Source: an uncultured Archangium sp. (GTDB lineage Bacteria; Myxococcota; Myxococcia; Myxococcales; Myxococcaceae). From it: a stretch of DNA of 52,390 bases. Where the stretch lies: assembly GCA_937875615.1 (NCBI GenBank), contig CALNBU010000553.1, positions 1 through 52,390 on the forward strand, written 5' to 3'. Numbering within the stretch: position 1 is the first letter of the stretch; every line of letters begins with the position of its first letter. The translations under genes were made by a program, and so were the position numbers. The notes beneath the pieces are model-generated. The model had not been told where the DNA came from. It saw nothing but the letters and a program-made list of their open reading frames with translations, and made no database searches. Shown in pieces: positions 472 through 50,563 of the stretch.

Positions 472-603
472 CGGGCCGGAAAGCGCGTCGCGGTGCGGTG
501 TCCGTGTAATTCTTGAGCCACACGATTCTTCCCGCGGCCGGGGCGCGCGAATGTGTCGGGGCGGTGCTGACAGCGGGCGCAGATTTGGTATTGGCGCGCG
601 GGC

Positions 604-2367: not shown

Positions 2368-2633
2368 CGAAAGAAGAGATCCACACCAAGTGTGTTGAAG
2401 TGCTGACCGAGACCTTCGGCATCAAGGCGGAGCTCATCAAGCCCGAGGCGCGCCTCTACGAAGAGCTTGACATCGACAGCATCGACGCCGTCGATCTCAT
2501 CGTCCAGCTCAAGCCCATGGTCGGCAAGCGGATGACGCCCGAGGCCTTCAAGAAGGTGCGCACGGTCCAGGACGTGGTCGACGCGCTGTACGCGTTGATT
2601 CACGACGACGTGGCCGCCCCGCCCGCCGCCTGA
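2364..2633 (+). CDS. Acyl carrier protein (ApeF-like), second tandem ACP
   Basis: 89 aa with motif LDIDSIDAVDLIV. GTGA overlap with the preceding ACP. Confidence 0.85.
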   Translation: MTKEEIHTKCVEVLTETFGIKAELIKPEARLYEELDIDSIDAVDLIVQLKPMVGKRMTPEAFKKVRTVQDVVDALYALIHDDVAAPPAA

Positions 2634-2640
2634 CGCCCTC

Positions 2641-5395: not shown

Positions 5396-5799
5396 GTCGC
5401 TGGGTACACGAGCTCCACATCGCGCCGCAGTTCTACGACTGCGACCCCATGTTCGTGGTGTGGCACGGCCACTACCTCAAGTACTTCGAGCAGGCGCGCG
5501 CGGAGCTGCTGGGGAGCCTGAACTACGGTTACCGGCAGATGCTGGAGAGCGGCTACCTGTGGCCCATCGTCGATCTCCGGCTCAAGTACGTGCGCTCGGC
5601 GAAGCTCCTGCAGCCGCTGACGGTGCGCGCGGAGATCGTCGAATATGAACATCGACTGAAGCTTGATTACCGCATCACGTCCGAGGGCGAGACCCTGACC
5701 CGGGGGTACACCGTGCAAGTGGCCGTCGACGCAAAGACGCAGGAGCTCCAGTACGTCACTCCCCGCGTGCTGTGGGAGCGGCTGGGGGTGGCGCCATGA
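5392..5799 (+). CDS. 4HBT/YbgC-type acyl-CoA/ACP thioesterase (ApeK-like)
   Basis: Internal ATG of the 5080..5799 ORF overlaps the upstream stop (ATGA). YDCDPMFVVWHGHYLKYFEQAR is a hotdog thioesterase signature. Confidence 0.85.
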   Translation: MSRWVHELHIAPQFYDCDPMFVVWHGHYLKYFEQARAELLGSLNYGYRQMLESGYLWPIVDLRLKYVRSAKLLQPLTVRAEIVEYEHRLKLDYRITSEGETLTRGYTVQVAVDAKTQELQYVTPRVLWERLGVAP

Positions 5800-6338
5800 G
5801 CGCCGCGCTGGTGTTGTTGCTGCTGGCGGCCGACGGCGACGTGGCCAGCCGGGTGCAGGCGAAGCTGGTGCAGCGCGAGGTGCTCACCGGCACCTTCGAG
5901 CAGAGCAAGCAGGTGAAGGGCTTCAAGCGCCCCTTCAGATCATCCGGCACCTACGAGGTGAAGAAGGGCGCCGGCGTGAAGTGGAACACCGCCGCGCCCT
6001 TCGCCTCGCAGCTCACGGTGACCGCCGACGAGATCCGCTCCATGCAGGGCAGCGAGCAGCTCTTCGCGCTCGACGCGAAGACCGAGCCCACGGTGAAGGT
6101 CATCACCCAGCTGCTGTTCTCGCTGCTGGCCGGTGACTTCGCGGTGCTCAGCCAGCACTTCGACGCGCGGGGCGCGGTGGAGGGCGAGGGCTGGAGCATC
6201 GAGCTGGTCCCGAAGGCCGGCCCGCTCACCCGCGCCTTCACCCGCATCTCGCTCAAGGGTGACGCCTTCGTCCGCTCGGTGACGCTGCACGAAGAGAGCG
6301 GTGACGTGACGTTGATCTCGCTGGCGCCCGCTCCGTGA
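5796..6338 (+). CDS. LolA-like outer-membrane lipoprotein carrier family protein (ApeL-like)
   Basis: ATGA overlap with the upstream gene. It has a signal-like N-terminus MSAALVLLLLAADG. The pattern FEQSKQVKGFKRPFRSSGTYEV...WNT is LolA-like, and the gene sits before the exporter. Confidence 0.7.
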   Translation: MSAALVLLLLAADGDVASRVQAKLVQREVLTGTFEQSKQVKGFKRPFRSSGTYEVKKGAGVKWNTAAPFASQLTVTADEIRSMQGSEQLFALDAKTEPTVKVITQLLFSLLAGDFAVLSQHFDARGAVEGEGWSIELVPKAGPLTRAFTRISLKGDAFVRSVTLHEESGDVTLISLAPAP

Positions 6339-8599: not shown

Positions 8600-8835
8600 A
8601 CATCACCGTCCTCATTCCCCGCTCGCTGCTGACCGCCTGTGAAGGGCGCGCGAAGATCGAGCTGGGAGTGCCGCCCTCCGCCGACGTGGCGGAGATTCTT
8701 GTCACGCTGCTGTCGCTCTACCCGGGGTTGAGGGCCTTCATGGCCAACGAGCAGCGCCCGCTCAGGCAGCACTTCAGCGTGGCGCGGCTCGGGCAGAAGA
8801 TCTTCCTCTTCACCAGCACCGCGGTCGTGGGCTGA
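8596..8835 (+). CDS. Small MoaD/ThiS-like ubiquitin-fold protein with an atypical C-terminus (no GG)
   Basis: GTG start overlaps the exporter stop. NITVLIPRSLLTACEGRAKIELGVPPSADVAEILVTLLSLYPGLRAF follows the MoaD pattern. The protein ends ...TAVVG. Third codon positions are GC-rich. Confidence 0.4.
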   Translation: MNITVLIPRSLLTACEGRAKIELGVPPSADVAEILVTLLSLYPGLRAFMANEQRPLRQHFSVARLGQKIFLFTSTAVVG

Positions 8836-11742: not shown

Positions 11743-13368
11743 ATGAGCGAATCAGCCGCCGCCGCCCCTGCTGCACCGGAAGTCGCCAAAGAGAACAAGA
11801 TGCCATCGAGCATCTGGTTCATCGTCAGCAACGAGTTCGCCGAGCGTTTCTGCTTCTACGGCATCAACTCGATTCTGGTGGCCTACATGGTGAGCCACAT
11901 GAAGTTCCCTGACGGGAAGGCGCTCGCCTGGGGTGCGCTCTTCAAGTCGGCGGCCTACTTCTTCCCGGTGTTGGGGGCCGTCATCTCCGACGTCTTCTGG
12001 GGGAAGTTCCGGACCATCTTCGTCTTCTCGATTCTCTACGCGACTGGTTGCGTGTGCCTCGCGCTCTTCGGGAGCAGCGAGTTCGCGCTGGTGGCGAGCC
12101 TCGGGTTGGTGGCCCTGGGAACCGGTGGCATCAAGCCCTGCGTATCGACCAACGTCGGTGACCAGTTCAGTGCGAAGAACGCGCACCTCATCGAGCGTGC
12201 GTTTTCGCTGTTCTACATGGCCATCAACGCCGGTTCGTCGATCTCCATCTTCATGTGCCCGTGGTTGCTCGACCATCCGAATTGGGGCCCGAAGTGGGCG
12301 TTCGGAATGCCAGCGATCATGATGGTGCTGGCCACCATCGTGTTCGTAGCCGGCAAGGCGAAGTACGTGATGGTTCCGCCAGCCGGCAAGGCGTGGCTCA
12401 AGGAGGTCTTCTCTCCAGATGGGCTGAAGCTCATCGCCAAACTCGGCGTGCTCTATGTCTTCGTCGCGCTCTTCTGGTCGCTGTGGGACCAGTCGAACGG
12501 AGGTGCCCTGGTGCTGCAGGCCAAGTCGCCGCTCATGGACAAGAGCATCTTCGGGATCTTCACCTTCAAGCCTGCGCAGGTACAGGTCGTGAACGGCCTC
12601 TTCATTTTGCTGCTGGCGCCAGTCTTCTCGTACGGCATCTACCCGGCGGTGAACAAGTTCGTGAAGGTGACACCGTTGCGCAAAATCGGCGCGGGGTTGG
12701 TAGTCATCGGCATCTCCTTCATCGTGGTTGGGTGGATCGAGGACGAGATCATGGCCGGTCGCACCGTGTCGGTGTGGTGGCAGCTGCTGGCCTACTTGAT
12801 CCTCACGGCTTCCGAGTTGCTGGTGTCTGTCACCGCACTGGAGTTTTCGTACAAGCAGGCGCCGCTGCGCATCAAGAGCTTCATCATGGCGCTCTTCTTG
12901 TTGTCGACCACGCTGGGAAATCTGGTGGTGGCTGCGGTGAATCTGGTGTCGGTGAAGCCGGTGAAGGTCGAGAAGATTGAGACCGGGGCGCAGACCTGGG
13001 TCACGCTCGAGGGGGCCGCCGACTTCGTGCCTGGTCAGAAGATCGACTTTACCGACAAGGCCGGAATCATGACGGTGTCGCTCGACGACAAGGGACAGCC
13101 CGAAGAGAAGGCCCTTGAGGGAACGTACCTGGTGGCGGAGGTCGAGACATCCCGCGTACGCATCATGACGGTGGAGCGGCAGGACCTGTCGACCAAGGGT
13201 GGCTTCAGCGGCCTGGACTCGGTGTCGACCTATTCCCTGGTTGGGTCTGCCTACTATTGGTTCTTCATCGCCATCATCTGGATTGCCGCGTTGGTGTTCG
13301 CGGTCTACGCGAAGTTCTACAAAGAGCAGGATTTCGTGCGCACTGATGAAGGGGCCGCCGCCGCGTGA
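11743..13368 (+). CDS. POT/PTR2-family proton-dependent oligopeptide transporter with an extra soluble loop domain
   Basis: PTR2 signatures ERFCFYGINSILVAYM and GGIKPCVSTNVGDQF. 541 aa. A ~95-aa hydrophilic insert precedes the last TM helix. Confidence 0.9.
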   Translation: MSESAAAAPAAPEVAKENKMPSSIWFIVSNEFAERFCFYGINSILVAYMVSHMKFPDGKALAWGALFKSAAYFFPVLGAVISDVFWGKFRTIFVFSILYATGCVCLALFGSSEFALVASLGLVALGTGGIKPCVSTNVGDQFSAKNAHLIERAFSLFYMAINAGSSISIFMCPWLLDHPNWGPKWAFGMPAIMMVLATIVFVAGKAKYVMVPPAGKAWLKEVFSPDGLKLIAKLGVLYVFVALFWSLWDQSNGGALVLQAKSPLMDKSIFGIFTFKPAQVQVVNGLFILLLAPVFSYGIYPAVNKFVKVTPLRKIGAGLVVIGISFIVVGWIEDEIMAGRTVSVWWQLLAYLILTASELLVSVTALEFSYKQAPLRIKSFIMALFLLSTTLGNLVVAAVNLVSVKPVKVEKIETGAQTWVTLEGAADFVPGQKIDFTDKAGIMTVSLDDKGQPEEKALEGTYLVAEVETSRVRIMTVERQDLSTKGGFSGLDSVSTYSLVGSAYYWFFIAIIWIAALVFAVYAKFYKEQDFVRTDEGAAAA

Positions 13369-13814
13369 CGGACCTGCGAGTCATCAACGTCGACCTGTCG
13401 GAGCTGCGCCTGGCCTTCGAGGCCGAGACGCAGGATCTTCCCTGGTACCTCGACACCGACACCGGCGCGGTGTTGCTGGCTACGCCCGAGTACGATCCCG
13501 CCCAGCACGGCGGGCTCACCCTGGCCACCATCGAGGCCGACACGCAGCGCTTCCTGCGCGTGCCGCCCTCCAACCCCGACCAGCTCATCGCCGACATGCG
13601 CGAGTTCGCCGATGAGTCTGGCGACGCCCAGCTCAAGGAGTCGCTCGAGCTGGCGCTCTCCGCGCCGAGGCCCGACAAGCGCTTCAAGACGGTGCTGTCG
13701 TGGTTGCCCGAGCAACAGGCGCAGTGGAGCGCCTGGCGTCAACGCCGCACGCTGGAGCGGGTGACGGTCTGGTTGAGCTCCAACGGCCTGGTGGCCAGGG
13801 CGCGTGTGGCATGA
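13365..13814 (+). CDS. UPF0158-family cytoplasmic protein
   Basis: GTGA overlap upstream and ATGA overlap downstream. The pattern WYLDTDTG...RFKTVLSWLPEQQAQWSAWRQ...WLSSNGL resembles UPF0158, as recalled from memory. Confidence 0.55.
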   Translation: MTDLRVINVDLSELRLAFEAETQDLPWYLDTDTGAVLLATPEYDPAQHGGLTLATIEADTQRFLRVPPSNPDQLIADMREFADESGDAQLKESLELALSAPRPDKRFKTVLSWLPEQQAQWSAWRQRRTLERVTVWLSSNGLVARARVA

Positions 13815-15361
13815 CGACGGAGACGGCGAAGACGAAGCTGCCGCCGCAGATTCGGTACATCATCGGCAACGAGGCCGCGGAGCGCTTCAGCTTCTACGGC
13901 ATGCGCAACGTGCTGACCGACTTCCTGTCGGCGCACCTGCTGGTGACGTTGGCCGCCACGCAGTTGGAGCGTGAAGCCATGGCCAAGGAGGTGTTCCACA
14001 CCTTCGCCATGGGCGTGTACTTCTTCCCGTTGCTCGGCGGCTGGTTGGCCGACCGGGTGCTGGGCAAGTACCGCGTCATCCTCTGGCTCTCGCTGGTGTA
14101 CTGCGTGGGGCAGGCGCTGCTGGTGTTCAGCACGGGGAGCCAGACCGGCTTCTACGCCGGCCTGTTGCTCATCGCGCTGGGCAGCGGAGGCATCAAGCCC
14201 TGCGTATCGGCCTTCGTGGGTGACCAGTTCGACTCTTCGAACAAGCACCTGGCGAAGGTGGTGTTCGACGCCTTCTACTTCATCATCAACTTCGGCTCGT
14301 TCTTCGCCTCGCTGCTCATCCCTCCGCTGCTCAAGTCGGGCTACGTGCGCCTGACCTTCGCGGTGCCGGCGGTGTTGATGGCAGTGGCGGTGGTCATCTT
14401 CTACGCGGGCCGCCACAAGTACGTGAACGTGGCGCCGGCGGCGAAGGACCCCGACTCCTTTCTCAACGTGTGCCGCACCGCGCTCTTCGGGCGTGGGTTG
14501 AACGCGGGCTCGGCGCTGGTGCTGGCGGGCGCCGTGTTGGCGCTGGGCTCCTTCGCGCTGTGGCCGTACCTGCACGCGGTACCCACCATCTGTCTCGCGC
14601 TGGTGGTGTTCCTGGTCTTCGGCGGCGTGGGCGCGTCACTGCGGGTGGACCAGGCGCGCGGCGCGCACCCAGACGAGGCCGTCGACGGCGTGAAGGCGGT
14701 GTTGAAGGTGCTGGTGTTGTTCGCGCTGGTGACGCCCTTCCATTCGCTCTTCGACCAGAAGGCCACCACCTGGGTATTGCAGGGCAACGCCATGGAGCTG
14801 CCCGGGTGGAGCTGGTTCAAGACCGCGTCGCAGATGCAGGCGGTGAACCCGATTCTGGTGATGCTGCTCATCCCCTTCAACAACGTGGTGCTCTTCCCGC
14901 TCCTGCGGAGGTTCGGGGTCGAGCCCACGCCGCTGCGTCGCATGGGCACGGGGTTGGTCTTCGCCGGCGGCTCCTGGGTGGTGGTGGCGTTGATGCAGCA
15001 GATGATGGACGGCGGCGCGAAGTTGTCGGTGCTGTGGCAGCTGCTCCCGTACTTCCTGCTCACGCTGGGCGAGGTGCTGGTGTCGGCGACCGGCCTCGAG
15101 TTTGCGTACAGTCAGGCGCCCGCGCGCCTCAAGGGCGTGCTGATGTCGTTCTGGATGCTCGCCACCACGGTGGGCAACCTCTGGGTGCTGCTCGCCAACG
15201 CCAGCGTGAAGAGCGAGGGCGTCACCCGCTACCTCACCGCGCAGGGCTGGGGCGTCATCTCGTCGCAGATGTACTTCTTCGCCTTCTTCGCCTTCGCCTC
15301 CGCGGCGGTGTTCGCGCTCTACGCGCGCGGCTACAAGGTGGCCGACCACTACCGGAAGTAG
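13811..15361 (+). CDS. POT/PTR2-family oligopeptide transporter (second paralogue)
   Basis: Internal ATG overlaps the upstream stop. Signatures ERFSFYGMRNVLTDFL and GGIKPCVSAFVGDQF. Confidence 0.9.
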   Translation: MTTETAKTKLPPQIRYIIGNEAAERFSFYGMRNVLTDFLSAHLLVTLAATQLEREAMAKEVFHTFAMGVYFFPLLGGWLADRVLGKYRVILWLSLVYCVGQALLVFSTGSQTGFYAGLLLIALGSGGIKPCVSAFVGDQFDSSNKHLAKVVFDAFYFIINFGSFFASLLIPPLLKSGYVRLTFAVPAVLMAVAVVIFYAGRHKYVNVAPAAKDPDSFLNVCRTALFGRGLNAGSALVLAGAVLALGSFALWPYLHAVPTICLALVVFLVFGGVGASLRVDQARGAHPDEAVDGVKAVLKVLVLFALVTPFHSLFDQKATTWVLQGNAMELPGWSWFKTASQMQAVNPILVMLLIPFNNVVLFPLLRRFGVEPTPLRRMGTGLVFAGGSWVVVALMQQMMDGGAKLSVLWQLLPYFLLTLGEVLVSATGLEFAYSQAPARLKGVLMSFWMLATTVGNLWVLLANASVKSEGVTRYLTAQGWGVISSQMYFFAFFAFASAAVFALYARGYKVADHYRK

Positions 15362-15931: not shown

Positions 15932-16516
15932 CTACGTCGCGGCGCGGACGTAGTGGGCGAGGCCGCGCGGCTCGCCGCCCGACCAGTCGCGGGTGTTCAT
16001 GGCGTCGAAGAGGCGGCGGGTCTCCACCAGCCACGGACCGAAGCCGGCGTTGACGTCCAGCACCAGCACCAGATCTTCGTCCGCCAGGTAGCCGCCGAGG
16101 GGCGAGTGGTGTCCGCCGCCGCTCCCGAAGAGCGGCGCGCGGGAAAAGTTGGTGATGAAGCGGTGCGCTGGATCATTCGCCCGTCGGAGGTGCGCGCGCA
16201 GGGCGTCGACGTCGCGCGGGCGCACGGCCTCGACGCGCCAGTCGGAAGGCAACAGCGCCGCTGATTCACCCACGACGTCCTCGAGGCTCATGGCGCGTAC
16301 GCCGAAGCGACTGAAGGGGTTGGGGGCTGCCTTCACGTCGAGGCTGCGCAGCACGTTGCAGACGCTGGTGGGGCCACAGATGGCGTTCCAGGTCTGTGAC
16401 TGAAGCGGGGCGTACCGCCGGGCGACGGGCAGCGCCCAGGCCGCGCGGAGCAGCGCCGGGTCCTGGTACCCCGGGTCGGCGCGGATGGAGGTGAAGGGCA
16501 GGGGAGCGCGACGCAC
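15932..16516 (-). CDS. Phytochelatin-synthase-like papain-fold cysteine peptidase (short bacterial form)
   Basis: A candidate Cys-His-Asp triad lies in PCS-like contexts. These are QSQTWNAICGPTSVCNVLRSL (Cys), GGGHHSPLGGY (His) and LVLVLDVNAGFGPWLVETRRLFDAM (Asp plus the PCS-like tail). Confidence 0.65.
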   Translation of the reverse strand: MRRAPLPFTSIRADPGYQDPALLRAAWALPVARRYAPLQSQTWNAICGPTSVCNVLRSLDVKAAPNPFSRFGVRAMSLEDVVGESAALLPSDWRVEAVRPRDVDALRAHLRRANDPAHRFITNFSRAPLFGSGGGHHSPLGGYLADEDLVLVLDVNAGFGPWLVETRRLFDAMNTRDWSGGEPRGLAHYVRAAT

Positions 16517-19486: not shown

Positions 19487-20572
19487 CTACTGCAGGGTCA
19501 CCTGGTCGCCGGTCACGAAGCGGGTCCCCTGGACGACCGCGCAGGTGGTGACCTTGCCGTTGAGGTGGCCGACCACCTGCAACACGCCGACGTCGTCACC
19601 GGCCTCGCGGCCCAACACCTGGCCGGTGGTGGGGTCGATGATCTCCGGGCCCAGGCGGCGCACCACCAACGTGGAGCCCACCTGCATGCCGCTCTCGGAG
19701 CCGGCGGTGATGTAGACCTTGCCCCGCGCCACGCTGGCCACCGAGCCCGACCACGGCTTGTTGGCCGCCGACGCCACCAGCTTGTTCATCATGGAGTGGA
19801 TGGCGGCGTAGAGCGCCTTCTTCCCCAGCGTGTCGTCCTGCGTGGCCTTGCCGCCGCCGAGGATGACCGCGCTCGACTGGATGGCCTCGCCCTCGCCGCT
19901 CTCCGCGGCCCAGGTCTCGCCGGTCGTCACGTCGACCATCCGCAGCGACACCCGCGCGTGGTACTTCATGGAGTCCTTCTGGAAGTAGCCGCCGAAGCCC
20001 GACTTGCTGTGGATGACGTTCAGATCGGTGATCTTCCCGGTGATGATGGCCTGCACGCCCAGCAGCTGCCCCATCTTCGCGGCCGACTTCGGGTTGATGA
20101 GCCCGCTGGCGCCCAGCTGCTGCTCGCCCAGCACCCGGTTGAGCTGCTCACGCTCGATGACGATGAAGGCGCCGGAGTTGTGGAGGGACTCGGTCACCAC
20201 GTCGGCCGCCGCCGCGGCCAGGGCCCGCCGGTTGCCGCTGTAGCCCTGGTACTGCGCCACGTCCTCGAAGTTCACGACCGCCACCCGGCGACGCAGCCCG
20301 GTGGTCACCGCCGTCTGTCCGGGCGACAGCATGGGGCCGGTGGCCCGCTCGGGTGCGGTCTGCTCCATGAGCGGCGGCGGAGGCGGGGGCGGGGGATCCT
20401 GTGGCGAGTAGTCAGCGGGGCCCTGCTGGGCGTACCCGGGCGGGAGCTGCTGTTGCGCCTGCGCCGCCAGGCGGGCTTCACGGGCCGCTCGCCGACGGGC
20501 GCGTCGCCCGGCGCAGCCGGAGAGCGAGGAGAGAACGAGGGCAATCATCAACAGGGTCGAGAACTTCTTCAT
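19487..20572 (-). CDS. CsgG-family lipoprotein with a long Arg/Pro-rich tether and a C-terminal beta domain
   Basis: Lipobox LSSLSG|C. The CsgG-like core is VAVVNFEDV...FIVIEREQLNRVLGEQQLGASG...LLGVQAIITGKITD. A poly-Pro tract (PPPPPPPP) follows the lipid Cys region. Confidence 0.72.
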   Translation of the reverse strand: MKKFSTLLMIALVLSSLSGCAGRRARRRAAREARLAAQAQQQLPPGYAQQGPADYSPQDPPPPPPPPLMEQTAPERATGPMLSPGQTAVTTGLRRRVAVVNFEDVAQYQGYSGNRRALAAAAADVVTESLHNSGAFIVIEREQLNRVLGEQQLGASGLINPKSAAKMGQLLGVQAIITGKITDLNVIHSKSGFGGYFQKDSMKYHARVSLRMVDVTTGETWAAESGEGEAIQSSAVILGGGKATQDDTLGKKALYAAIHSMMNKLVASAANKPWSGSVASVARGKVYITAGSESGMQVGSTLVVRRLGPEIIDPTTGQVLGREAGDDVGVLQVVGHLNGKVTTCAVVQGTRFVTGDQVTLQ

Positions 20573-20717
20573 GGGAAACCTCTGGGGTTGCGGTGAGAGA
20601 GACCCGCCCAGGGTTCAGGACCCATTCCAGAATTCAGGCCTGCAAAATCATATGGTTGCAGACGGCCAAGGCCGTCAGTGGAGACACGCCGTCGCGCCGC
20701 GCGGTCGGTGTGGCTCC

Positions 20718-22832
20718 TCAGTCGTGCAGCGTCAGCTGTTGGACCTCGCCGGAGGCCGACTTCAGCTCCACCAGGTGGCGCCCGCCGAGGCGCAGCCGCG
20801 GGTGCTCGAGCTGGAGCGCGCCGTCGGCCTCTCGCCAGGTCGACCACAGCCCGCCGTCGATGCGCCAGGCGTAGCGCCCGCGGGGAACGAAGAGCGTCGC
20901 GGCGCCCTCGGAGCGCTCCGCGCGCACCACCAGCGATTGGGTGGCCCGCTTCTGCTGCGCCACGCACGCGCCGGCGTCGGAGGGCAGCCGGGCATAGAAG
21001 GCCGCGTGTCCGAAGGTGTTCGCGCCCTGCAGCGGGGCGATGCCGCGCGCCCCCACCACCTCCAGCGTGCCCATCAGGTCGGGTACGGCGAAGCCCCCCA
21101 GCCCAGCAGCGAGCTGCGGCTCGGCGAGCGAGAGCAGGGTGGGCAGGAGGTTGGCCAGCACCGTGGCGTCCTCTGCCAGCAGCTCGCTGTTGCCCACCAC
21201 CACGTTGCTCACCAGGTTGCCGAGCGAGCCGATGACGGGAGTGAGGGTGGCGCAGTCGGCCTCCACGCCCAGCGGCAGTGAGACGTCGGCCAGCACGGTG
21301 AAGAGGCGCACCTGGCGCTCCTCGAGCTGCGCGTAGAGGTCGACCTCCAGGTTCGGCCAGTCGAGGCGGAGCAGCGGCTCGACCAGCGCGCCGCTGGCGT
21401 CGATGGTGTTGGCGCCGATGACCGCGCTGGGGGGCGCCGTCGGGCGGAGCGCGATGAGCAGCGGCACGTTCTTTCCGTGCGTCAGCTTGTTGAGCGAGGG
21501 CAGCAGCGTGCCCAGCAGCTCCGAGCTCAGCAGGCTCACCGTCGAGGTGCCCAGCTGCAGACACAGCGCGCCGGACTGGTGCGCGTTGAAGAAGAGCTCG
21601 GAGAGGAACTGGTTCGAGACCGAGAAGCCCACGTCGTACGGCCCCGGCGCCAGCTGGTCGAAGTCGGGCAGGGGCAGCGTCGGCGGGGTGGGCCGCTGCA
21701 GCGCGGTGACGCAGTCGGCGACCGTGAGCGCCTGGACGCCGCCCCGGAGCCCCGCCGTCAGCCCCACGCTGGTGGCCTCCGCGCTGCCGCCCGCGCCGAT
21801 GGCCAGCTCCACCGCGGCGCCCGGCGGAACGCCCAGACCGCTCAGCAGCACGTCGAGCTCCGCGCGGCCCTCCATGCCCAGCGAGAGCGGCACGCAGGCG
21901 CCGTTGCTGTCGTCGCGGCAGAGGCCGGCCTGACAGCTGGAGGTGTGCGTCCCCGAGGTCGGGCACTCGCCCTGCGGGCCGCAGGCCGCGCACAGCGTGT
22001 CGCCGAGGCGGGTGGTGAGCTGGGTGCGCAGCTGCGCGGTGAGCTGGTTGATGAGCAGCGTCTTCACCGGCCCGAGGTTGGCGATGTTCAGCGCCGAGCA
22101 GCCCTCGTTGAGGATCTCCATGTCGTCGGGGTCGATGCAGGCCTCGGTCGCGGTGCCGCCGCAGGCCTGGGTGTTGCCGATGGCCGCCACCTCCAGCTTG
22201 AGCACCTGGTCCCACCGGGTGTCGATGGTGAGCGCGAGGTCGAGCAGCAGCTCGTTGGTCACCGGCGGCTGTCGCGCGGAGTCGTAGTCGACGGTGAACT
22301 TCGCGCGGCCGAACGGAGGGATGAGGCCGCACAGCGGGGTGCCGCCCACGGAGGAGATGGGCAGCGCGCCGGTGTCGACGGCGGCGGTGACGCGCACCCG
22401 CAGCAGGTTGGGGGCCGCCGGCTCGAAGCGGGGGTCGGCCAGCGTCAGCGTCACCGGGTGTCCCTGGTCGTCGGCGTCGCAGGTACCGTCCATGCGCCCG
22501 CACGACTCGTCGGCGCAGCCGGGCTGGCCGGTGTCGGCGATGGCCAGCTGCAGCACCGGGATGCCGATGACACTGGTGGTCTGCGGCGAGCACGGGATGG
22601 TGACGTTCATCACGCCGCCCGGCGCGAGGAGGCTCATGAAGGTCTCGCCGTTGGCGTTGAGGTACGAGAAGCCGTTGGCGGAGAGGCGCGCCGCCCCGGC
22701 GCTGTTGAGCTTCTGGCCGGTGAAGCTGCCCTGCGGGAGCTGCGTGAACCCGGGGCAGCTGCAGTTGGGCAGGGCGCAGGTGGTCAGCAGGCAGCAGGCG
22801 AGGAAGAGCGAGGGGCGCGTCACCGGCGGCAC
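20718..22832 (-). CDS. Large secreted Cys-rich protein of unknown function, possibly a two-lobed BPI/LBP/CETP (TULIP)-like lipid-binding protein with a C-terminal beta-sandwich
   Basis: 704 aa with a hydrophobic Cys-containing N-terminus (SLFLACCLLTTCA), many paired Cys and GC-rich third positions. Several segments resemble the BPI C-terminal domain pattern as I recall it: VSNQFLSELFFNAHQSGAL, LLGTLLPSLNKL and SNVVVGNSELLAEDATVLANLLPTLL. Confidence 0.55.
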   Translation of the reverse strand: MPPVTRPSLFLACCLLTTCALPNCSCPGFTQLPQGSFTGQKLNSAGAARLSANGFSYLNANGETFMSLLAPGGVMNVTIPCSPQTTSVIGIPVLQLAIADTGQPGCADESCGRMDGTCDADDQGHPVTLTLADPRFEPAAPNLLRVRVTAAVDTGALPISSVGGTPLCGLIPPFGRAKFTVDYDSARQPPVTNELLLDLALTIDTRWDQVLKLEVAAIGNTQACGGTATEACIDPDDMEILNEGCSALNIANLGPVKTLLINQLTAQLRTQLTTRLGDTLCAACGPQGECPTSGTHTSSCQAGLCRDDSNGACVPLSLGMEGRAELDVLLSGLGVPPGAAVELAIGAGGSAEATSVGLTAGLRGGVQALTVADCVTALQRPTPPTLPLPDFDQLAPGPYDVGFSVSNQFLSELFFNAHQSGALCLQLGTSTVSLLSSELLGTLLPSLNKLTHGKNVPLLIALRPTAPPSAVIGANTIDASGALVEPLLRLDWPNLEVDLYAQLEERQVRLFTVLADVSLPLGVEADCATLTPVIGSLGNLVSNVVVGNSELLAEDATVLANLLPTLLSLAEPQLAAGLGGFAVPDLMGTLEVVGARGIAPLQGANTFGHAAFYARLPSDAGACVAQQKRATQSLVVRAERSEGAATLFVPRGRYAWRIDGGLWSTWREADGALQLEHPRLRLGGRHLVELKSASGEVQQLTLHD

Positions 22833-29218: not shown

Positions 29219-29318
29219 GTTGCCACAGCGGGCAGGTCCCCACGGCGCCAATCGCTACCGCCAGCATGACGAATTCCACTGTTGATGAACGCGCTCTGTG
29301 ACGTGGCGGTGCGCGTCG

Positions 29319-30356
29319 TCAGTAGCGATTCTTTTCGTAGTCGTGCTCGAGGCCGACGCGCATCATCGTCTTCGAGGCCAGGGTGCGCACCGCCGTCGCG
29401 GCGAGGCCGCGCTGCTTGTTCTGCTTCACGTGGTCGATGAACACGTCGGCGATGCGCGGCAGCGCGCTCCTGGGGACGTGGCGCGCGGGGTCCCACAGGC
29501 GAGCGTCGCGCACCGCGGGGCTGTCGAAGAGCTTCGCGGCGTCGAGCTCCAGGCGCAGCGCCAGCTTCGGCGTCTTGCCCTCCACCGCCATCTCCGCGAG
29601 CAGCTCCGGCGCGCTGGTGAGCGAGGCGCGGCCCGTCAGCTCCGCGGCCCGCTCGTCTCCGGGGCTCAGCGCCAGCAGGGCCACCCGCGGTTGTTCGAGC
29701 AGGTTGTGAAAGGTGTCGGTACGGCGATTCCCGGGGCGGTCGGGCACCAGGAGCCGCCCGTCGGCGTCGACGCGGAGGAAGCCCCGCGGGTCACCCTTGG
29801 GGCTGGCGTCGGCGGCGCCGGTGGCGTCCCAGGAGGTCAACACCACGAAGGGCGACGCCGCGAGGAACGTACGGAGCGCGGGCTCGCTCAGGGGGCTGCC
29901 GGCCACGGACGGCAGCGGCACGATGGGGGCTGTTGGCGCGCTCGCGCTCCACAGCGAAGAGCGGAGAATCGACTTGGCGCAGTGCACGAAGGCCTCCTCG
30001 ACCCGCAGCGTGAGGTGAAGGCCGTCGAGCGAGGCGCGGCCGTTGATGCGCAGCGTCTCGCCCAGGCCCGGCACCAGGAAGACCAGCGAACAGCCCACCG
30101 TGAGGTCGAGGGCGAGCGGCTCCGGCAGCTGCAGGCGGAGGTGGTGCTCGTCGAGGGCCTCGGCGAAGCCCGCCGCGCCGCCCACCGGAATCGCGCGCGC
30201 CCGCCCGGCCGGGTCACAGGCGCCCAGCACCGCGAAGGGCGCGCAGCGGAGCAGGTGACGGCAGTGCCCGTCGAGCAGGTCGATGGACTTCATCAGCACG
30301 GCCAGGGGGCGCGCGCCCACCAGCGCCTCCAACGCGGTCACGGTCGTGAGCTCCAT
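29319..30356 (-). CDS. Tandem split-barrel PPOX-like (pyridoxamine 5'-phosphate oxidase family) FMN-binding protein
   Basis: Start at MELTTV. Two copies of the pattern ...PG..ETLRINGRASL / ...PDRPGNRRTDTFHNLLEQPRVALLALSPGDERAAELTGRASL. Function is unknown. Confidence 0.6.
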   Translation of the reverse strand: MELTTVTALEALVGARPLAVLMKSIDLLDGHCRHLLRCAPFAVLGACDPAGRARAIPVGGAAGFAEALDEHHLRLQLPEPLALDLTVGCSLVFLVPGLGETLRINGRASLDGLHLTLRVEEAFVHCAKSILRSSLWSASAPTAPIVPLPSVAGSPLSEPALRTFLAASPFVVLTSWDATGAADASPKGDPRGFLRVDADGRLLVPDRPGNRRTDTFHNLLEQPRVALLALSPGDERAAELTGRASLTSAPELLAEMAVEGKTPKLALRLELDAAKLFDSPAVRDARLWDPARHVPRSALPRIADVFIDHVKQNKQRGLAATAVRTLASKTMMRVGLEHDYEKNRY

Positions 30357-30530
30357 GGCCCCACGAGAGTCTATTTTGAGTTTGATTTGCAAGACCGACT
30401 GTCCATCCAGTCAGCGCGCGCACCGGGCGCCGTGGCGGGGTGGCCACGTGGTGCGGCCATCAAGACGCGCGCGCGCGTGCGCTGCCCGCGCTACAACGCG
30501 TTCGCCCACTTCTTGCTTCCGAGGGGACTC

Positions 30531-33500
30531 ATGCACGCTCGCCGTCTGCTCGTTTCAACCGTTTGCTTCGCCGTGGTCGCCGGCTGCACCTGCGGCGGGT
30601 CCACCACCCCGACCGACCCGATGACGCCGGGCCAGGACGCGCCGGCGCAGGCGCTGAGCCCGCTCCCGGAGCCGCCGAAGCTGGACCTGGCGCTGGAGCC
30701 GCTGCCCGGCGCCGACGGCTCCCTGGCGGTGGTCGCGCGACGGCCGCAGGGCGATGTGCGCGGCGAGGTGCGGCCCACGGTCACCTTCTCGAAGCCCATC
30801 AAGTCGCTGGAGGTCGTCGAGGACCAGCGCGCCGCCGACGAGAAGGCGCCCTTCGCCCGAATCGACCCTCCGCTCGAAGGTGCGTGGCGCTGGCTGGGCT
30901 CGTCGACGGCGGAGTTCGTGCCGAAGGGGCTGGTGCCGTACTCCACCACCTTGACGGTCACCGTCTTCAAGGGGCTCAAGGCGCTCGACGGCTCGACGCT
31001 GAAGGACGACGAGGTGTACTCGTTCTCGACGCCGCGCCTCGCGCTGCAGCAGGTGAGCCCCTTCAACGGCCACCGCTGGCTCGAACCCGACACCACCTTC
31101 AGCCTGCTGTTCAACCAGCCAGTGGAGTCGGCGGAGCTGGAGAAGCAGGTGCGGCTGACGGTGGGCGGGGCGCCAGTGGCGCTCAAGGTCGAGAAGGAGG
31201 CTTCGGTGCAGGACGAGCGCCGGGCGGCGCGCGGTGATGAGCGACCCTGGGAGCAGCTGTCTGACGAGGAGCGCGGCTACCGCAACCGGCAGACCCGCTA
31301 CGTGCTCAAGCCGGCGTCGCCGCTGAAGCTCGACAGCGAGGTGGTGCTGGTGCTGCCGTCGACGCTGCGCGGGAAAGAGGGCCCGCAGACCATGGAGAAC
31401 GAGGAGCGCCGCAGCTTCCGCACCTATGGCCCGCTCAAGTTGGAGTCGGTCGGCTTCTGCGAGCGCGGCTGGCGTTGCCCGTACGGCCCGATGACGGTCT
31501 TCACCAGCAACGAGGTCGACGTGGAGACGCTCAAGTCACGGCTGAAGGTGACGCCGGAGGTGGAGCTCGACTGGGAGCGCGCCGAGGCCTGGGCGCCGGA
31601 GTCGGAGTGGGCCATGAGCAACCAGCGCCCGCTGGTGCGGCTGCCGGGAAAGTGGCGGCCCGGCACGAAGTACAAGTTGGAGATCTCCTCCGGCGTGGGC
31701 GACGTCTTCAAGCAGACGGCGAAGGAGGGCCTCGATGGGCAGGCGAGCACCGATGATCTGCGAGCGGCGCTCACCACCGGGCCTGCCCTGGGCATGCTCG
31801 AGAAGACCGCCGCCGCGCCGGTGCTGACCGTCGACGTCGCCAACCTGAAGGAACTCGACGTCTCGATGTGGAGGCTGTCGGACGACGAGCTGGCGCGGCT
31901 GCTGGTGTCCAACTCGCCCGGAGACTGGTCGATGCTGGGGCGCGCGGCGGACTTCGCCGAGAAGGAGCAGCTCAAGTACCCGCACAACACCTCGCGGGTG
32001 CATCCGCTCAAGCTGAAGAAGGTGCTGGGCGCGGCGACCGGTGGCGCGGTGCTGGCGGTGACCAACTCTCCCCAGCTGGAGTACCGACCGGCCCGCGGCT
32101 TCCAGCAGTTGCTGCAGATTACCGACCTCGCGGCGCACGTGAAGGTGGGGCCGAAGTCGTCGCTGGCGTGGGTGACGCGCCTCTCCGACGGGCTGCCGGT
32201 CGGCGGCGCGGAGGTGAGCGTCTACAACAGCGTGGGCGAGAAGACGTGGAGCGGCGTCACCAACGCCGACGGCTTCGTGGACGTGCCCTCGGCGAAGGAG
32301 CTCAAGCTCACCCCGCCGCGCTACGACTGGGAGTACCCGCGGGCGGTGGTGTTGGCGAAGAAGGACGGCGACGTCACGGGCACCTCCAGCAGCTGGAGCT
32401 CCGGGGTGGAGCCCTATGAGTTCGGCATCAACACCGGTTGGGAAGGCGAGCAGCCGCGCTCGAACTCCTTCATCTTCACCGACCGCGGCATCTACCGGCC
32501 GGGCGACGAGGTCTTCATCAAGGGCGTGGTGCGCTACCGGGTGCTGGGCGAGCTGCGCGCCCCCGCCGAGGGCAGCGCGCTGCGCGTGGTGGTCACCGAC
32601 GCGCGGGACAACGAGGTCAGCAGCCAGACGGTGAAGGTGTCGAAGTACGGCACCTTCTCGCTCTCGACGAAGGTCGAGCGCGACGGCCCCACCGGCTACT
32701 ACCGCGTGGAGGCCGACGGGAAGGTGGCCGGCGCAGACCTGACGGTCAGCGGGAGCTTCCGGGTCGCCGAGTACCGGGCGCCGCAGTTCCGCGTCGACGT
32801 GCAGAGCAGCCAGCAGGACCTCACCGCCGGCGACACGCTGGAGGCCTCGGTCTTCGCGCGCTACCTCTTCGGCGGCGCCATGAGCGACGTGCAGGTGAAG
32901 TGGTCGGCGCAGCGGACGCAGACCTCGTTCTACCCGCAGGCCGGCGCGGGCTTCACGTTCTCGCAGGAGACCTGGTGGTGGGACGACAACCGCCCGCAGG
33001 ACGCCAGCGGGTTCTTCGCCTCGGGCGAGGGGAAGGCCGACGCGAAGGGCGCGCTGGCGGTGAAGGCCGGCGTCACCGAGGCCCCGGGCGAGAAGCCCTA
33101 CAGCTATTCGTTCGAGGCGGAGGTCACCGACGTGAATCGGCAGGCGGTCGCCGGCCGCACCTCGGTGGTGGTGCACCCCTCGAAGTACTACGTGGGCCTC
33201 AAGGCGGGCTCCTACTTCCTCACCGCGGGCAGCGAGACGGAGCTGCTGGGGCTGGTGCTCGACAACCAGGGCAAGCGCACCGACGCGGTGCCCTTCACCG
33301 TGGCCATCAGCAAGCGTGAGTGGAAGTCGGTGAAGCAGAAGGACGCCTCGGGGGGCTTCAGCACCGTGTCGGAGGCGGTGGAGACCGAGGCGCACCGGTG
33401 CGAGCTCAAGTCGTCGGCCACCGCGGTGCCCTGCCGCTTCACGCCGACCTCGGCGGGCTTCTACATCGTGCGCGGCTCGGTGAAGGACGAAGCGGGTCGC

Positions 33501-36497
33501 ACGCACAGCGCGTCGATGGGCCTCTACGCGCTCGGCACCGAGTGGGTCGCCTGGCAGCGCAACGACACCGACCGCCTCGAGCTGGTGACCGACAAGTCCA
33601 GCTACGACGTGGGCGACGTGGCGAAGGTGCTCATCAAGTCGCCCTACCCGGAGGCGAAGGCGATGTTCACCGTGGAGCGCGAGGGCGTGCTGTCGCGCCA
33701 GTTGCTGCACCTCAAGGGCTCGGTGGTGACGGTCGACGTGCCGGTCACCGAAGACATGGTGCCCAACGTCTTCGCCGGCGTGGTGCTGATGCGCCCGCGG
33801 GTGAGCGAGGGCGGCATCGAGACCGGCGATGACCCGGGTCGGCCGAACGCGCGCGTGGGCCTCATCAAGCTCAACGTGGAGAAGAAGAGCAAGCGGCTGG
33901 CGGTGAACATCAAGACCGACAAGAAGGACTACCAGCCTCGCGAGAAGGTCAACGTCTCCATCGACGTGAAGGACATCAAGGGCGCCGGCGCGAACGGTGA
34001 GGTCACGCTCTACGTGGTCGACGAGGCGGTGCTGCGGCTGACCTCGTACCAGGTGCCGGATCCCATCGCGGCCATCTTCCCCGAGCGGCCGCTCTCGGTA
34101 CGCCTGGGTGAGCCGCTGCTGCACCTGGTGAAGAAGCGCGCCTACGGCGAGAAGGGCGAAGACCAGGGCGGCGGTGGCGGCGGCGACGAGGGCGCGGAGT
34201 TCCGCAACAACTTCAAGACCACGGTGCTGTTCAGCCCCACGCTGGAGCTGAAGGACGGCGTGGCCAGCACCTCCTTCGTGTTGCCCGACAACCTCACCGA
34301 GTTCCGGTTGATGGCGGTGGTGGTGACCCAGAGCGATCGCTTCGGCAGCGGTGAGGCCAGCGTCCGGGTGAACAAGCCGGTGATGGCGCTCCCGGCCTTG
34401 CCGCGCTTCGCGCGGGTGGGCGACGTCTTCGAGGCCGGCGTGGTGGTGCACGCGCACGGCGGCTCGGCGGGCGAGGTGACGGTGACGGCCGCGGTGACCG
34501 GCGCGGCCCAGTTGACGGGGGCGGCCGAGCAGAAGGTGGTGGTGAACGAGGGCGCGCCGAAGGAGGTGCGCTTCGCCTTCAAGGCCACCACCTTCGGTGA
34601 CGCGCGCTTCCGCTTCACCGCGAAGGGCGCGGGGGTGAGCGACGGCGTCGAGCAGGTGATTCCGGTGGAGCTGCCGGTGGAGCTCGACGCGGTGGCCACC
34701 TACGGCGACACCACCGATGCGCGGGTCGAGGGCCTCGTGCCCCCGAAGGAGGTCTACGAAGACCGCGGCGGGTTGACGGTGACCATGGCGTCGACGTCGC
34801 TGGTCGGCTTCGACACCGGGTTCCAGCAGCTCATCGAGTACCCCTACGGGTGTCTGGAGCAGCAGAGCTCGCGGCTGGTGCCCTTCATCGCGCTGCGGGA
34901 GATCGCCGGGCAGTTCAACCTCGCCTGGCCCACGCGCGACAAGAAGAAGGCGGCGAAGGACGACGAGGTGGCGGCGTTGTTCCGCACCTACCTCTACGGC
35001 TCGCTCGACGTGTCCGACAAGCACCACCCCGACGACGTCATCGCGGCCACCGTGAAGAGCATCCTCTCGATGCAGAACGACAACGGCAGCTTCCGCTACT
35101 GGCCCTCGTCGCAGTGCCACGACCCGTGGGTGTCGGCCTACGCGACGATGACCCTGTCGCGCGCGAAGGACGTCGGCTTCGAGGTGCCCAAAGAGAGCCT
35201 GGACAAGGCGGCGCGCTACCTGGCTGACGTGGTGGGCGGCAACTGCGGCAGCTGCTGGTCGGGCCCGTACTGCGGCGACGAGACGCGCGTCTTCGCCTCC
35301 TACGTGCTGGCCCGCATGAAGAAGCCGAGGGCGTCGAGCTACCCCGAGCTCTACGCGCGCCGCGACAAGCTCTCGCTCTTCGGGAAGGCGCTGCTGGCCA
35401 ACGCCATGTACGTAGGCCAGGGCGACCGCAAGCAGGCCAACGCGCTGCTGCAGGAGCTGCTCAACCACGCCAGGGAGTCGCCGAAGGGCGTGTCCTTCGC
35501 CGAGGTCAACTCCGCGACCTACGCCACGCTCTTCAACTCCGACACCCGCACCACCGGCGTGGTGCTGCAGGCGTTGACCGACATCTCACCCGACCACCCC
35601 TACGTGGGAAAGATGGCGAAGTACCTCACCGGCGTGCGCGCGGGTGACGGCCAGTGGCGCTCCACGCAGGAGGCGGCGTGGTCGTTGATGGGCCTCACCC
35701 AGGTGTTGCGCACCAAGGAGCGGGACACGCCCGACTTCAAGGCCTCGCTGCTGATGGGCGCCGGCGAGCTGATGAGCCAGGGCTTCCAGGGGCGGTCGAT
35801 GAAGAGCGAGGTGAAGACCCTGCCCATGAAGGAGCTGCTGGCGAAGTCCGCCGGCGCCGACCAGAAGTTGACCTTCAAGAAGGAGGGCACCGGCGTGCTG
35901 TATTACTCGGCGCTGCTCAGGTACGCGCCGAAGCAGCTGCCCATGAGCTCGCTCGACAACGGGCTCTTCGTGCAGCGCTGGTTCGAGCCCTTCGCCGGCG
36001 GCGGTCAGGCGCTGAAGTTCTCGGCGGGCGACCTGGTGCGGGTGCGGGTGCGCGTGGCCACCAACCAGGAACGTCACTGGGCCGCCTTCGAGGTGCCGCT
36101 CCCCGCGGGCCTGGAGCCCGTCGACACCTCGCTGGCCACCACCGCGCGGCAGGGCAGCGCCCCCGACGAAGAGAGCCGGGAGCCGGGCTACGACGAGGAG
36201 AGCTACGAAGACGGAGAAGAGGGGAACGCCGAGGGCGACTACGACGAGAACCCCTGGGCGTACTCGTTCTGGAGCCCGTTCAACCACATCGAGCTGCGCG
36301 ACAGCCGGGTGGTGGTGTTCGCCGACCACCTGCCGCCGGGCATCCACGTGGCGAGCTTCGTGGCCCGCGCCACCACGCCGGGCACGTATATCCTCAAGCC
36401 CGCGCGCGGTGAGCTGATGTACGAGCCGGAGGTGTGGGGGCGCAGCGAGGGCGGGACCTTCGTGGTGGAGATGCCCTCGGTGGTGACGCAGAAGTGA
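30531..36497 (+). CDS. Bacterial alpha-2-macroglobulin family lipoprotein (YfhM-like) with an intact thioester motif
   Basis: I chose the ATG at 30531; the upstream 411 codons of the 2399-aa ORF are antisense shadow over the PPOX gene. Lipobox VVAG|C. 1988 aa. Thioester CLEQ in YPYGCLEQQSSR at 34851-34862. Followed by pbpC, as in E. coli. Confidence 0.9.
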   Translation: MHARRLLVSTVCFAVVAGCTCGGSTTPTDPMTPGQDAPAQALSPLPEPPKLDLALEPLPGADGSLAVVARRPQGDVRGEVRPTVTFSKPIKSLEVVEDQRAADEKAPFARIDPPLEGAWRWLGSSTAEFVPKGLVPYSTTLTVTVFKGLKALDGSTLKDDEVYSFSTPRLALQQVSPFNGHRWLEPDTTFSLLFNQPVESAELEKQVRLTVGGAPVALKVEKEASVQDERRAARGDERPWEQLSDEERGYRNRQTRYVLKPASPLKLDSEVVLVLPSTLRGKEGPQTMENEERRSFRTYGPLKLESVGFCERGWRCPYGPMTVFTSNEVDVETLKSRLKVTPEVELDWERAEAWAPESEWAMSNQRPLVRLPGKWRPGTKYKLEISSGVGDVFKQTAKEGLDGQASTDDLRAALTTGPALGMLEKTAAAPVLTVDVANLKELDVSMWRLSDDELARLLVSNSPGDWSMLGRAADFAEKEQLKYPHNTSRVHPLKLKKVLGAATGGAVLAVTNSPQLEYRPARGFQQLLQITDLAAHVKVGPKSSLAWVTRLSDGLPVGGAEVSVYNSVGEKTWSGVTNADGFVDVPSAKELKLTPPRYDWEYPRAVVLAKKDGDVTGTSSSWSSGVEPYEFGINTGWEGEQPRSNSFIFTDRGIYRPGDEVFIKGVVRYRVLGELRAPAEGSALRVVVTDARDNEVSSQTVKVSKYGTFSLSTKVERDGPTGYYRVEADGKVAGADLTVSGSFRVAEYRAPQFRVDVQSSQQDLTAGDTLEASVFARYLFGGAMSDVQVKWSAQRTQTSFYPQAGAGFTFSQETWWWDDNRPQDASGFFASGEGKADAKGALAVKAGVTEAPGEKPYSYSFEAEVTDVNRQAVAGRTSVVVHPSKYYVGLKAGSYFLTAGSETELLGLVLDNQGKRTDAVPFTVAISKREWKSVKQKDASGGFSTVSEAVETEAHRCELKSSATAVPCRFTPTSAGFYIVRGSVKDEAGRTHSASMGLYALGTEWVAWQRNDTDRLELVTDKSSYDVGDVAKVLIKSPYPEAKAMFTVEREGVLSRQLLHLKGSVVTVDVPVTEDMVPNVFAGVVLMRPRVSEGGIETGDDPGRPNARVGLIKLNVEKKSKRLAVNIKTDKKDYQPREKVNVSIDVKDIKGAGANGEVTLYVVDEAVLRLTSYQVPDPIAAIFPERPLSVRLGEPLLHLVKKRAYGEKGEDQGGGGGGDEGAEFRNNFKTTVLFSPTLELKDGVASTSFVLPDNLTEFRLMAVVVTQSDRFGSGEASVRVNKPVMALPALPRFARVGDVFEAGVVVHAHGGSAGEVTVTAAVTGAAQLTGAAEQKVVVNEGAPKEVRFAFKATTFGDARFRFTAKGAGVSDGVEQVIPVELPVELDAVATYGDTTDARVEGLVPPKEVYEDRGGLTVTMASTSLVGFDTGFQQLIEYPYGCLEQQSSRLVPFIALREIAGQFNLAWPTRDKKKAAKDDEVAALFRTYLYGSLDVSDKHHPDDVIAATVKSILSMQNDNGSFRYWPSSQCHDPWVSAYATMTLSRAKDVGFEVPKESLDKAARYLADVVGGNCGSCWSGPYCGDETRVFASYVLARMKKPRASSYPELYARRDKLSLFGKALLANAMYVGQGDRKQANALLQELLNHARESPKGVSFAEVNSATYATLFNSDTRTTGVVLQALTDISPDHPYVGKMAKYLTGVRAGDGQWRSTQEAAWSLMGLTQVLRTKERDTPDFKASLLMGAGELMSQGFQGRSMKSEVKTLPMKELLAKSAGADQKLTFKKEGTGVLYYSALLRYAPKQLPMSSLDNGLFVQRWFEPFAGGGQALKFSAGDLVRVRVRVATNQERHWAAFEVPLPAGLEPVDTSLATTARQGSAPDEESREPGYDEESYEDGEEGNAEGDYDENPWAYSFWSPFNHIELRDSRVVVFADHLPPGIHVASFVARATTPGTYILKPARGELMYEPEVWGRSEGGTFVVEMPSVVTQK

Positions 36498-47673: not shown

Positions 47674-47679
47674 GCCGAC

Positions 47680-50554: not shown

Positions 50555-50563
50555 CGCGGGCGG

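Follow-up and report, generated by a model that had tools for sequence, protein, structure and literature searches.

Proteins with a TULIP fold have already been described from bacteria, in the families YceB/DUF1439, DUF4403, DUF2140, DUF2993, and P47/OrfX (PMC6791001), and clustering of the AlphaFold database (AFDB) has revealed full BPI-like folds in bacteria as well, such as A0A2D5ZNG0, with a template modelling (TM) score of 0.81 to human BPI (Barrio-Hernandez et al. 2023, PMC10584675). In Bdellovibrio bacteriovorus, TipA (Bd2538) was solved as a BPI-like double-TULIP that contains lipids within the lumen and attaches to bilayers, and a beta-sandwich adapter, TipB (Bd2539), opens the N-terminal TULIP of TipA; the same authors noted double-TULIPs with fused beta-rich domains in AFDB (bioRxiv 10.1101/2025.09.09.675085). 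TipA is the sole bacterial double-TULIP studied experimentally so far. The gene analyzed here lies at 20718..22832 (minus strand) of a 52,390-nt stretch of DNA from an uncultured Archangium sp. (assembly GCA_937875615.1, contig CALNBU010000553.1, positions 1 to 52,390), referred to below as the window. Its product is probably a stand-alone, lipid-anchored, disulfide-stabilised double-TULIP carrier of BPI/LBP/CETP architecture, of which the CsgG-like gene next to it forms no part.

Assignment of the fold comes from structure prediction. An AlphaFold2 model computed from an alignment with 42 homologues (alignment A1) reached a predicted local distance difference test score (pLDDT) of 82.1 and a predicted TM score (pTM) of 0.78, and the order of strand, short helix, long antiparallel strands, and long helix is present in it twice, as two lobes. 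Foldseek comparison with the Protein Data Bank (PDB) placed BPI, LBP, and CETP on top (E from 2e-17 to 5e-13). The best match was human BPI (1bp1, E 2.4e-17, TM 0.55 per target, probability 1.0), and the further top matches, also at probability 1.0, were BPI 1ewf (E 1.0e-16), LBP 4m4d (E 5e-16), and CETP 2obd (E 4.6e-13). Both lobes are covered, because the alignments to BPI and CETP run over ~600 columns. Next came clostridial P47 (E 2e-5) and then the single-TULIP proteins BSP30b and SPLUNC1. Identity of the window protein to BPI, LBP, and CETP is only 10-12%, and sequence searches of the PDB gave nothing meaningful either with the single protein (NADPH-sorbose reductase) or with the family profile (Far1), the best E values being 0.3-0.5 in both cases. 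The relationship to BPI is one that comparison of the predicted structure reveals and that direct PDB sequence search does not.

A link at the sequence level runs through a homologue, P0097, which is 38% identical to the window protein with 98% of the query covered. P0097 matches the Pfam model LBP_BPI_CETP_C (PF02886) with 33.5 bits (gathering cut-off 23, E 3.7e-8), and its residues 407-589, aligned to positions 39-218 of the 238 in the profile, map to residues 400-587 of the window protein (residue numbers refer to the 701-aa form starting at GTG 22823). Sub-threshold matches to PF02886 occur in P0161 (19.3 bits) and P0084 (11.1 bits), and at E<=1 the model is matched in only 3 of the 42 aligned members. 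The N-terminal domain model of the same proteins, PF01273, matched neither the window protein nor any of the 42.

These results bear on the first-pass annotation of this stretch, which had been made from the letters alone and had proposed a two-lobed BPI/TULIP-like fold for a Cys-rich protein with a terminal beta-sandwich tail. All of this was borne out, with 23 Cys in the protein and a tail that is 7-stranded in the model and generically Ig/FN3/PKD-like. The same annotation had likened four segments of the second half (residues 402-420, 436-466, 492-521, and 539-581) to the pattern of BPI's C-terminal domain. That parallel was correct, since the PF02886 match mapped from P0097 covers all four segments. 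A similar element claimed for the first half, FSYLNANGETFMSLL (residues 52-66), fared less evenly: structurally it occupies the matching position, a strand with helix A, but the corresponding profile similarity did not appear, as comparison of the N-terminal with the C-terminal lobe gave no profile-profile signal of internal duplication (hhalign E 0.32).

The open reading frame (ORF) is regarded as a real gene because its GC content by codon position (0.70/0.51/0.97, GC3 0.97) is typical of genes in a window of ~70% GC. The longest form has 704 sense codons, with the stop codon at 20718-20720, and the start codon is likely the GTG at 22823, which yields a 701-aa protein; the protein's own database copy begins MTRPS, three codons inside the longest ORF, and is 701 aa long. 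At its N-terminus lies a signal peptide with a lipobox, MTRPSLFLACCLLTT followed by C (22776..22823, minus strand), in which Cys16 is the predicted lipidated N-terminus. The remaining features lie on the same strand, with boundaries taken largely from the model. The N-terminal TULIP lobe (residues ~26-292, 21948..22748) is composed, in the secondary structure predicted by AlphaFold2, of a strand, helix A (49-66), long antiparallel strands, and the 26-residue helix B (251-276), with a Cys-rich loop at ~96-121. A Cys-rich connector with central-sheet strands follows (residues ~293-397, 21633..21947), placed from the model and from conservation; four conserved Cys lie inside it (297, 302, 310, and 371) and three shortly ahead of it (278, 281, and 287). 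The C-terminal TULIP lobe (residues ~398-615, 20979..21632), placed from the model and the mapped PF02886 match of P0097, has a strand, helix A' (404-417), long strands (485-523), and helix B' (553-574). The 7-stranded tail (residues ~630-701, 20721..20936), recognized from a tail-only model and from conservation, bears the conserved motif YSWRVDxGxWSxW...HPRLxLxGxH, and the protein ends directly after this sandwich with ...QQLTLHD. The protein, as read from sequence and model, shows a lipoprotein signal, two tubular helix/sheet/helix lobes that a Cys-rich middle part joins back to back, and a small C-terminal Ig-like sandwich.

Nearly all homologues start with a signal peptide that closes in a lipobox, and 95% of the 42 aligned sequences have Cys in the column of Cys16. 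The lipobox of the window protein reads L-T-T-C16, and most homologues have a classic L-x-A-C or A-A-C-G after a hydrophobic stretch, as called by eye and by regular expression. About 20 Cys columns of the alignment are invariant or nearly so, which suggests an oxidising, extracytoplasmic location. Taken with the predicted fold, the evidence supports an exported, BPI/TULIP-like protein with two lobes. The mature form has an acidic isoelectric point (pI 4.64), with lobes at pI ~4.3-4.4 and a basic tail at pI 9.9. A test for a cationic N-terminal domain of the mammalian BPI type came out against it, as the N-terminal lobe has a pI of 4.34 and contains 14 Lys and Arg against 26 Asp and Glu. Acidic lobes argue against the cationic, lipopolysaccharide (LPS)-targeting bactericidal mode of mammalian BPI and favour a carrier or transfer role. 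Following Sec export and lipidation, the protein would reside in an oxidising compartment, tethered to the outer membrane and facing the periplasm or placed at the cell surface. The two apolar tubes would load lipids, or hydrophobic molecules of other kinds, and ferry them through water between membranes, in the manner of the BPI family and TipA, and the conserved, basic, Trp-rich sandwich would probably serve as a docking, gating, or regulatory module.

The tail was also modelled alone, with a pLDDT of 90.8, and this model gave weak, generic Foldseek matches of the Ig/FN3/PKD/CTD-like kind (best E 0.016, TM 0.4-0.55). An identity with TipB or with C2 domains was considered and is unsupported: neither a C2 nor an ExsB-type structure is among the top 50 matches, which are instead generic Ig/FN3/PKD domains, the RgpB C-terminal domain, and sandwich domains of glycosidases, all at E >= 0.016.

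The protein belongs to a large family that is seen in Myxococcota-type assemblies only and for which neither Pfam nor NCBIfam has a model. A search of a 5.8-billion-protein collection returned 101 homologues at E<=1e-3, and all that carry a taxon label are from Archangium, Myxococcaceae, or Myxococcota metagenome-assembled genomes (MAGs). When 1.84 billion cluster representatives were searched exhaustively with a profile, 1255 matched as members at E<=1e-3, and 560 did so at E<=1e-30; as these are representatives at 50% identity, the family comprises at least 1255 clusters. The representatives looked up come from Myxococcaceae or Deltaproteobacteria MAGs, and all are named 'hypothetical'.

Among 246 fetched members, three main length classes can be distinguished, and they differ in MYXO-CTERM, a signal that sends proteins to the surface of myxobacterial cells by way of myxosortase and the type II secretion system (PMC11980579). 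Members of 761-1000 aa have a second sandwich, and in 64 of 72 the C-terminus consists of a Cys, a hydrophobic helix, and an Arg cluster; in those above 1000 aa the MYXO-CTERM-like tag is internal (11 of the 12 inspected). The model TIGR03901 (MYXO-CTERM) scores 16-18 bits, under its cut-off of 20, in P0097, P0101, and P0170, and the window protein, of the 650-760 aa class, is without a C-terminal MYXO-CTERM pattern. The tags of the longer members make a surface location plausible for the family as a whole. Two of those above 1000 aa, P0200 (1402 aa) and P0222 (1514 aa), have the double-TULIP and sandwich, then an internal MYXO-CTERM-like motif (GC...hydrophobic...RRRR), then an in-frame second lipoprotein-type signal (for example ...LIGVLVAACAIVSAC followed by DSDD), and finally a large Cys-rich, repeat-containing module. 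Judged by sequence, these two look like in-frame fusions of two exported proteins; a comparable internal MYXO-CTERM has been mentioned for MXAN_5598 (PMC11980579).

Directly downstream of the BPI-like gene and on the same strand is a gene (19487..20572, minus strand) for a 361-aa lipoprotein of the CsgG/HfaB family (PF03783, E 3.9e-29, 101.9 bits, residues 94-275), with the lipobox LSSLSG followed by C. The first-pass annotation had correctly recognized this gene, and had read the two as an envelope system. The 145-nt spacer between them (20573..20717, minus strand) contains neither a sigma-70-like promoter nor an intrinsic-terminator consensus that scanning could detect. A perfect palindrome, GACGGCCTTGGCCGTC, stands at 20661-20676 (minus strand), ~40 nt past the BPI-like stop codon; no T-run follows it, and for this reason the terminator scan left it unflagged. 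Its hairpin appears in the predicted fold of the whole spacer, which overall is not more stable than shuffles (z -0.35). Beyond the CsgG-like gene follow uvrA, a phytochelatin-synthase-like gene, and a GNAT gene, and upstream, divergent from the BPI-like gene, lie a gene for a PBP4-type D-Ala-D-Ala carboxypeptidase and ssb. Among the neighbouring window genes there is no match to the CsgE, CsgF, CsgA, or CsgB families, the next genes being uvrA and PBP4.

Gene context was compared in 48 homologue loci, all from Myxococcota MAGs, obtained by scanning a single genome for each GTDB species. Within the fetched flanks, tblastn with the window's neighbours found a CsgG-like gene beside the homologue in 0/48 loci and uvrA likewise in 0/48; PBP4, often accompanied by ssb, lies upstream in the majority. 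The absence of CsgG is not due to short contigs, because at least 2 kb of sequence is present downstream of the homologue in 39 of the 48 loci. A census of neighbours across these loci counted PBP4 (27), a divergent short-chain dehydrogenase (SDR) gene immediately upstream (26), an SRPBCC protein (23), a convergent rpe gene for ribulose-phosphate 3-epimerase downstream (20), GAF/HD-GYP (18), and pyruvate kinase (11), with no channel or transporter among the conserved neighbours. SDR and rpe flank the gene on the opposite strand in most loci, and it has no conserved transport or channel partner. SDR, SRPBCC, and rpe are all missing from the window, which points to a lineage-specific rearrangement on the downstream side, and in a rearranged lineage the CsgG and uvrA neighbours are explained without a functional link.

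The pairing is equally absent elsewhere, both around distant family members (a CsgG-like neighbour in 0/4 loci) and around CsgG orthologues that are 55-73% identical (a BPI-like gene nearby in 0/7 loci). Neighbours of these orthologues include APH with NTP-transferase, a trypsin-like protease, DsbA-like and isocitrate-lyase genes, and, once, an aryl polyene (APE) cluster. The BPI-like gene is passed on at a syntenic site beside PBP4, without a conserved operon partner, and the CsgG-like gene is a contig-specific neighbour rather than a conserved partner. The first-pass annotation had itself named missing linkage to CsgG-like genes in other genomes as grounds for refuting the system, and in the loci compared the linkage is missing.

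Two further observations concern these loci. The C-terminal tail of the SRPBCC/AHSA1-like protein is long, rich in Lys, Ala, and Pro, and histone-H1-like, and the protein is encoded between PBP4 and SDR in its 23 loci; in one example among loci L002-L046, it lies at 4483-5229 of L028, upstream of the BPI-like homologue. In the locus with the APE cluster (L059, 5099-7104), a CsgG orthologue (55% identical) overlaps the end of an unannotated 301-aa gene by 4 nt, and the two are divergent from genes for Ketoacyl-synt_2, an acyltransferase, two acyl carrier proteins, and ApeI/AMP-binding. The CsgG-like gene of this locus may, from its arrangement, be tied to APE export instead of to a BPI-like protein.

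Genes of the APE type are present at both ends of the window. At 600-8600 (plus strand) are Ketoacyl-synt_2, ApeI-like/AMP-binding, GT2, LolA-like (5772-6338), and MMPL (6335-8599) genes. The set at 46516-52174 has two ketosynthases together with an ApeP-like dehydratase (47680-48138), and an aromatic amino-acid ammonia-lyase is encoded there on the minus strand (50564-52174). The region had been described in the first-pass annotation as otherwise rich in lipid export genes. The LolA-like, MMPL, and APE genes do exist, but they lie >12 kb from the BPI-like gene, with 7TM-HD, two POT, UPF0158, GNAT, phytochelatin-synthase-like, and uvrA genes between the first set and the BPI-like gene, and the arrangement is not conserved. 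A functional linkage to APE, LolA, or MMPL was rejected on account of this distance and its absence from the homologues' loci.

Several explanations compete with that of a stand-alone carrier. That the BPI-like and CsgG-like proteins form a dedicated two-component envelope system, in which the shuttle hands hydrophobic cargo to the CsgG-type channel or exits through it, is highly improbable. It draws on the adjacency of the two genes on one strand, on the lack of a recognisable terminator in the spacer, on the prediction of both products as envelope lipoproteins, and on the solid family membership of the CsgG-like protein; yet the adjacency occurs in this contig only, the BPI-like gene is flanked by opposite-strand genes in most relatives, and the closest CsgG orthologue found (73% identical) sits between DsbA-like and isocitrate-lyase genes. 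The CsgG pore passes unfolded curli subunits, and a folded, disulfide-rich 70-kDa protein would be unexpected as its substrate. This model is the least likely of the rivals and is largely refuted by the missing co-occurrence. A factor for predation or competition, displayed on the surface or shed on outer-membrane vesicles and attacking prey membranes or stripping lipids from them, in analogy to TipA or to the membrane-permeabilising activity of BPI, is an unlikely alternative. It would suit a family confined to assemblies of a phylum with many predators, and the MYXO-CTERM-like surface-sorting tags of the longer relatives speak for it (PMC11980579). Against these stand the lack of MYXO-CTERM in the window subfamily and the acidic lobes, which would have no attraction to anionic LPS or phospholipid surfaces of the kind that cationic BPI has. 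The conserved syntenic site among housekeeping-type genes is likewise not a variable weapon locus, no small same-strand partner gene of the TipB kind is conserved in the 48-locus census, and the fused sandwich does not appear C2-like.

It is improbable, too, that the cargo of the protein is some hydrophobic, non-membrane small molecule (a pigment, an aryl polyene, an isoprenoid, or a signal, for instance), carried in the manner of the single-TULIP Takeout and juvenile-hormone-binding proteins (JHBP), and that it does not transfer phospholipid or LPS in bulk. TULIP tubes bind varied hydrophobic ligands (PMC5507252), the moth JHBP is discussed in the TipA preprint (bioRxiv 10.1101/2025.09.09.675085), APE biosynthesis and export genes occupy both window ends, and YceI genes lie near one distant family member; but the APE genes are neither close to the BPI-like gene nor beside homologues elsewhere, no biosynthetic gene is among the conserved neighbours, and the characterised double-TULIPs (BPI, LBP, CETP, and TipA) bind lipids or LPS. 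The stand-alone double-TULIP carrier is the probable explanation on balance, and some results weigh against it. The window protein itself matches nothing in Pfam or NCBIfam, PF02886 included even at E<=1, and because of this the sequence evidence for its BPI membership is transitive. All members with a displayed name are called 'hypothetical'. Surface exposure is less certain for the window's subfamily, as MYXO-CTERM is almost always absent there (a MYXO-CTERM-like end in only 4 of 102 members of 650-760 aa), and, with no terminator found, the BPI-like and CsgG-like genes may be co-transcribed in this organism. A bolder extension of the carrier explanation, quite unlikely as it stands, is that the family is a dedicated device for lipid extraction and transfer at the cell surface or outer membrane of social or predatory myxobacteria, held by an N-terminal acyl anchor and in longer paralogues also by a MYXO-CTERM lipid, with the Trp-rich sandwich gating the N-terminal tube in cis as TipB does. 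If this were true, lipids would pass from cell to cell by way of the device, during outer-membrane exchange or the harvesting of prey lipids, and bacteria would possess a counterpart, equipped with a gating domain of its own, to the BPI/CETP plasma lipid carriers of eukaryotes.

Other parts of the window contain genes of separate interest. Between uvrA and GNAT, a gene at 15932-16516 (minus strand) encodes a 194-aa protein of the phytochelatin-synthase family (PF05023, E 1.2e-23), a family uncommon in bacteria. Tandem POT/PTR2 peptide transporter genes lie at 11743-13368 and 13700-15361 (both plus strand), with a UPF0158 gene between them at 13365-13814. A 2399-aa bacterial alpha-2-macroglobulin (A2M) with MG2, bMG3, bMG5, bait region, TED, and bMG10 is encoded at 29298-36497 (plus strand), and directly after it, at 36434-38896 (plus strand), a PBP1C-type bifunctional penicillin-binding protein (Transgly, Transpeptidase, and BiPBP_C), the two forming the classic A2M-PbpC pair. 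The A2M is the second 'innate-immunity-like' protein in the window besides the BPI-like one.

The family adds a large unannotated group to the short list of bacterial BPI-like double-TULIPs, and it offers natural variants, some with a lipobox only, some with both lipobox and MYXO-CTERM, and some fused in frame to a second lipoprotein-like module, which could help to explain extracytoplasmic and cross-surface lipid movement in bacteria. Equally important is the negative result on the proposed system of BPI-like and CsgG proteins, which should not be propagated, because adjacency on a single contig was the sole evidence for it. The system had also been called undescribed, which overstates the novelty of the protein: bacterial BPI-like double-TULIPs have already been reported (PMC10584675; bioRxiv 10.1101/2025.09.09.675085), and the window protein is a further example of a known fold class.

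With BPI, LBP, CETP, and PLTP (PF01273 plus PF02886; 1bp1, 4m4d, and 2obd), the window protein shares, in its predicted structure, two back-to-back tubular lobes, the strands of a central sheet, and an extracytoplasmic location, and its C-terminal lobe is homologous at the profile level through P0097. It differs from them in its lipobox anchor, its ~20 conserved Cys, where BPI has one disulfide, its acidic lobes, and an extra Cys-rich connector and C-terminal Ig-like sandwich, and it is ~250 residues longer. Clostridium botulinum P47/OrfX proteins, which are encoded in toxin gene clusters, share the TULIP fold, although P47 is a much weaker structural match (TM 0.2-0.3). E. coli YceB, also a lipoprotein, is a bacterial TULIP with a single TULIP domain, as opposed to the two of the window protein. 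The bacterial structural homologues of BPI from AFDB have a full BPI-like fold and were noted as clusters only, under figure labels that include Deltaproteobacteria and Planctomycetes (PMC10584675).

TipA did not appear among the PDB Foldseek matches and is compared with the window protein by description. Both are bacterial double-TULIPs with BPI, CETP, and LBP as their nearest structural neighbours, TipA works with a beta-sandwich module, as the window protein may with its own, and TipA comes from a predator of the former Deltaproteobacteria. C2-like TipB is ~170 aa long and comes as a protein of its own from an operonic gene, whereas the sandwich of the window protein is fused, ~75 aa long, and Ig/FN3/PKD-like. 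TipA is not described as a lipoprotein, the words 'lipoprotein' and 'disulfide' having 0 occurrences each in the paper (bioRxiv 10.1101/2025.09.09.675085). The particular features of the window family are its lipoprotein anchor, its many conserved Cys, its acidic surface, its Trp-rich Ig-like tail, and its sister subfamilies with MYXO-CTERM.

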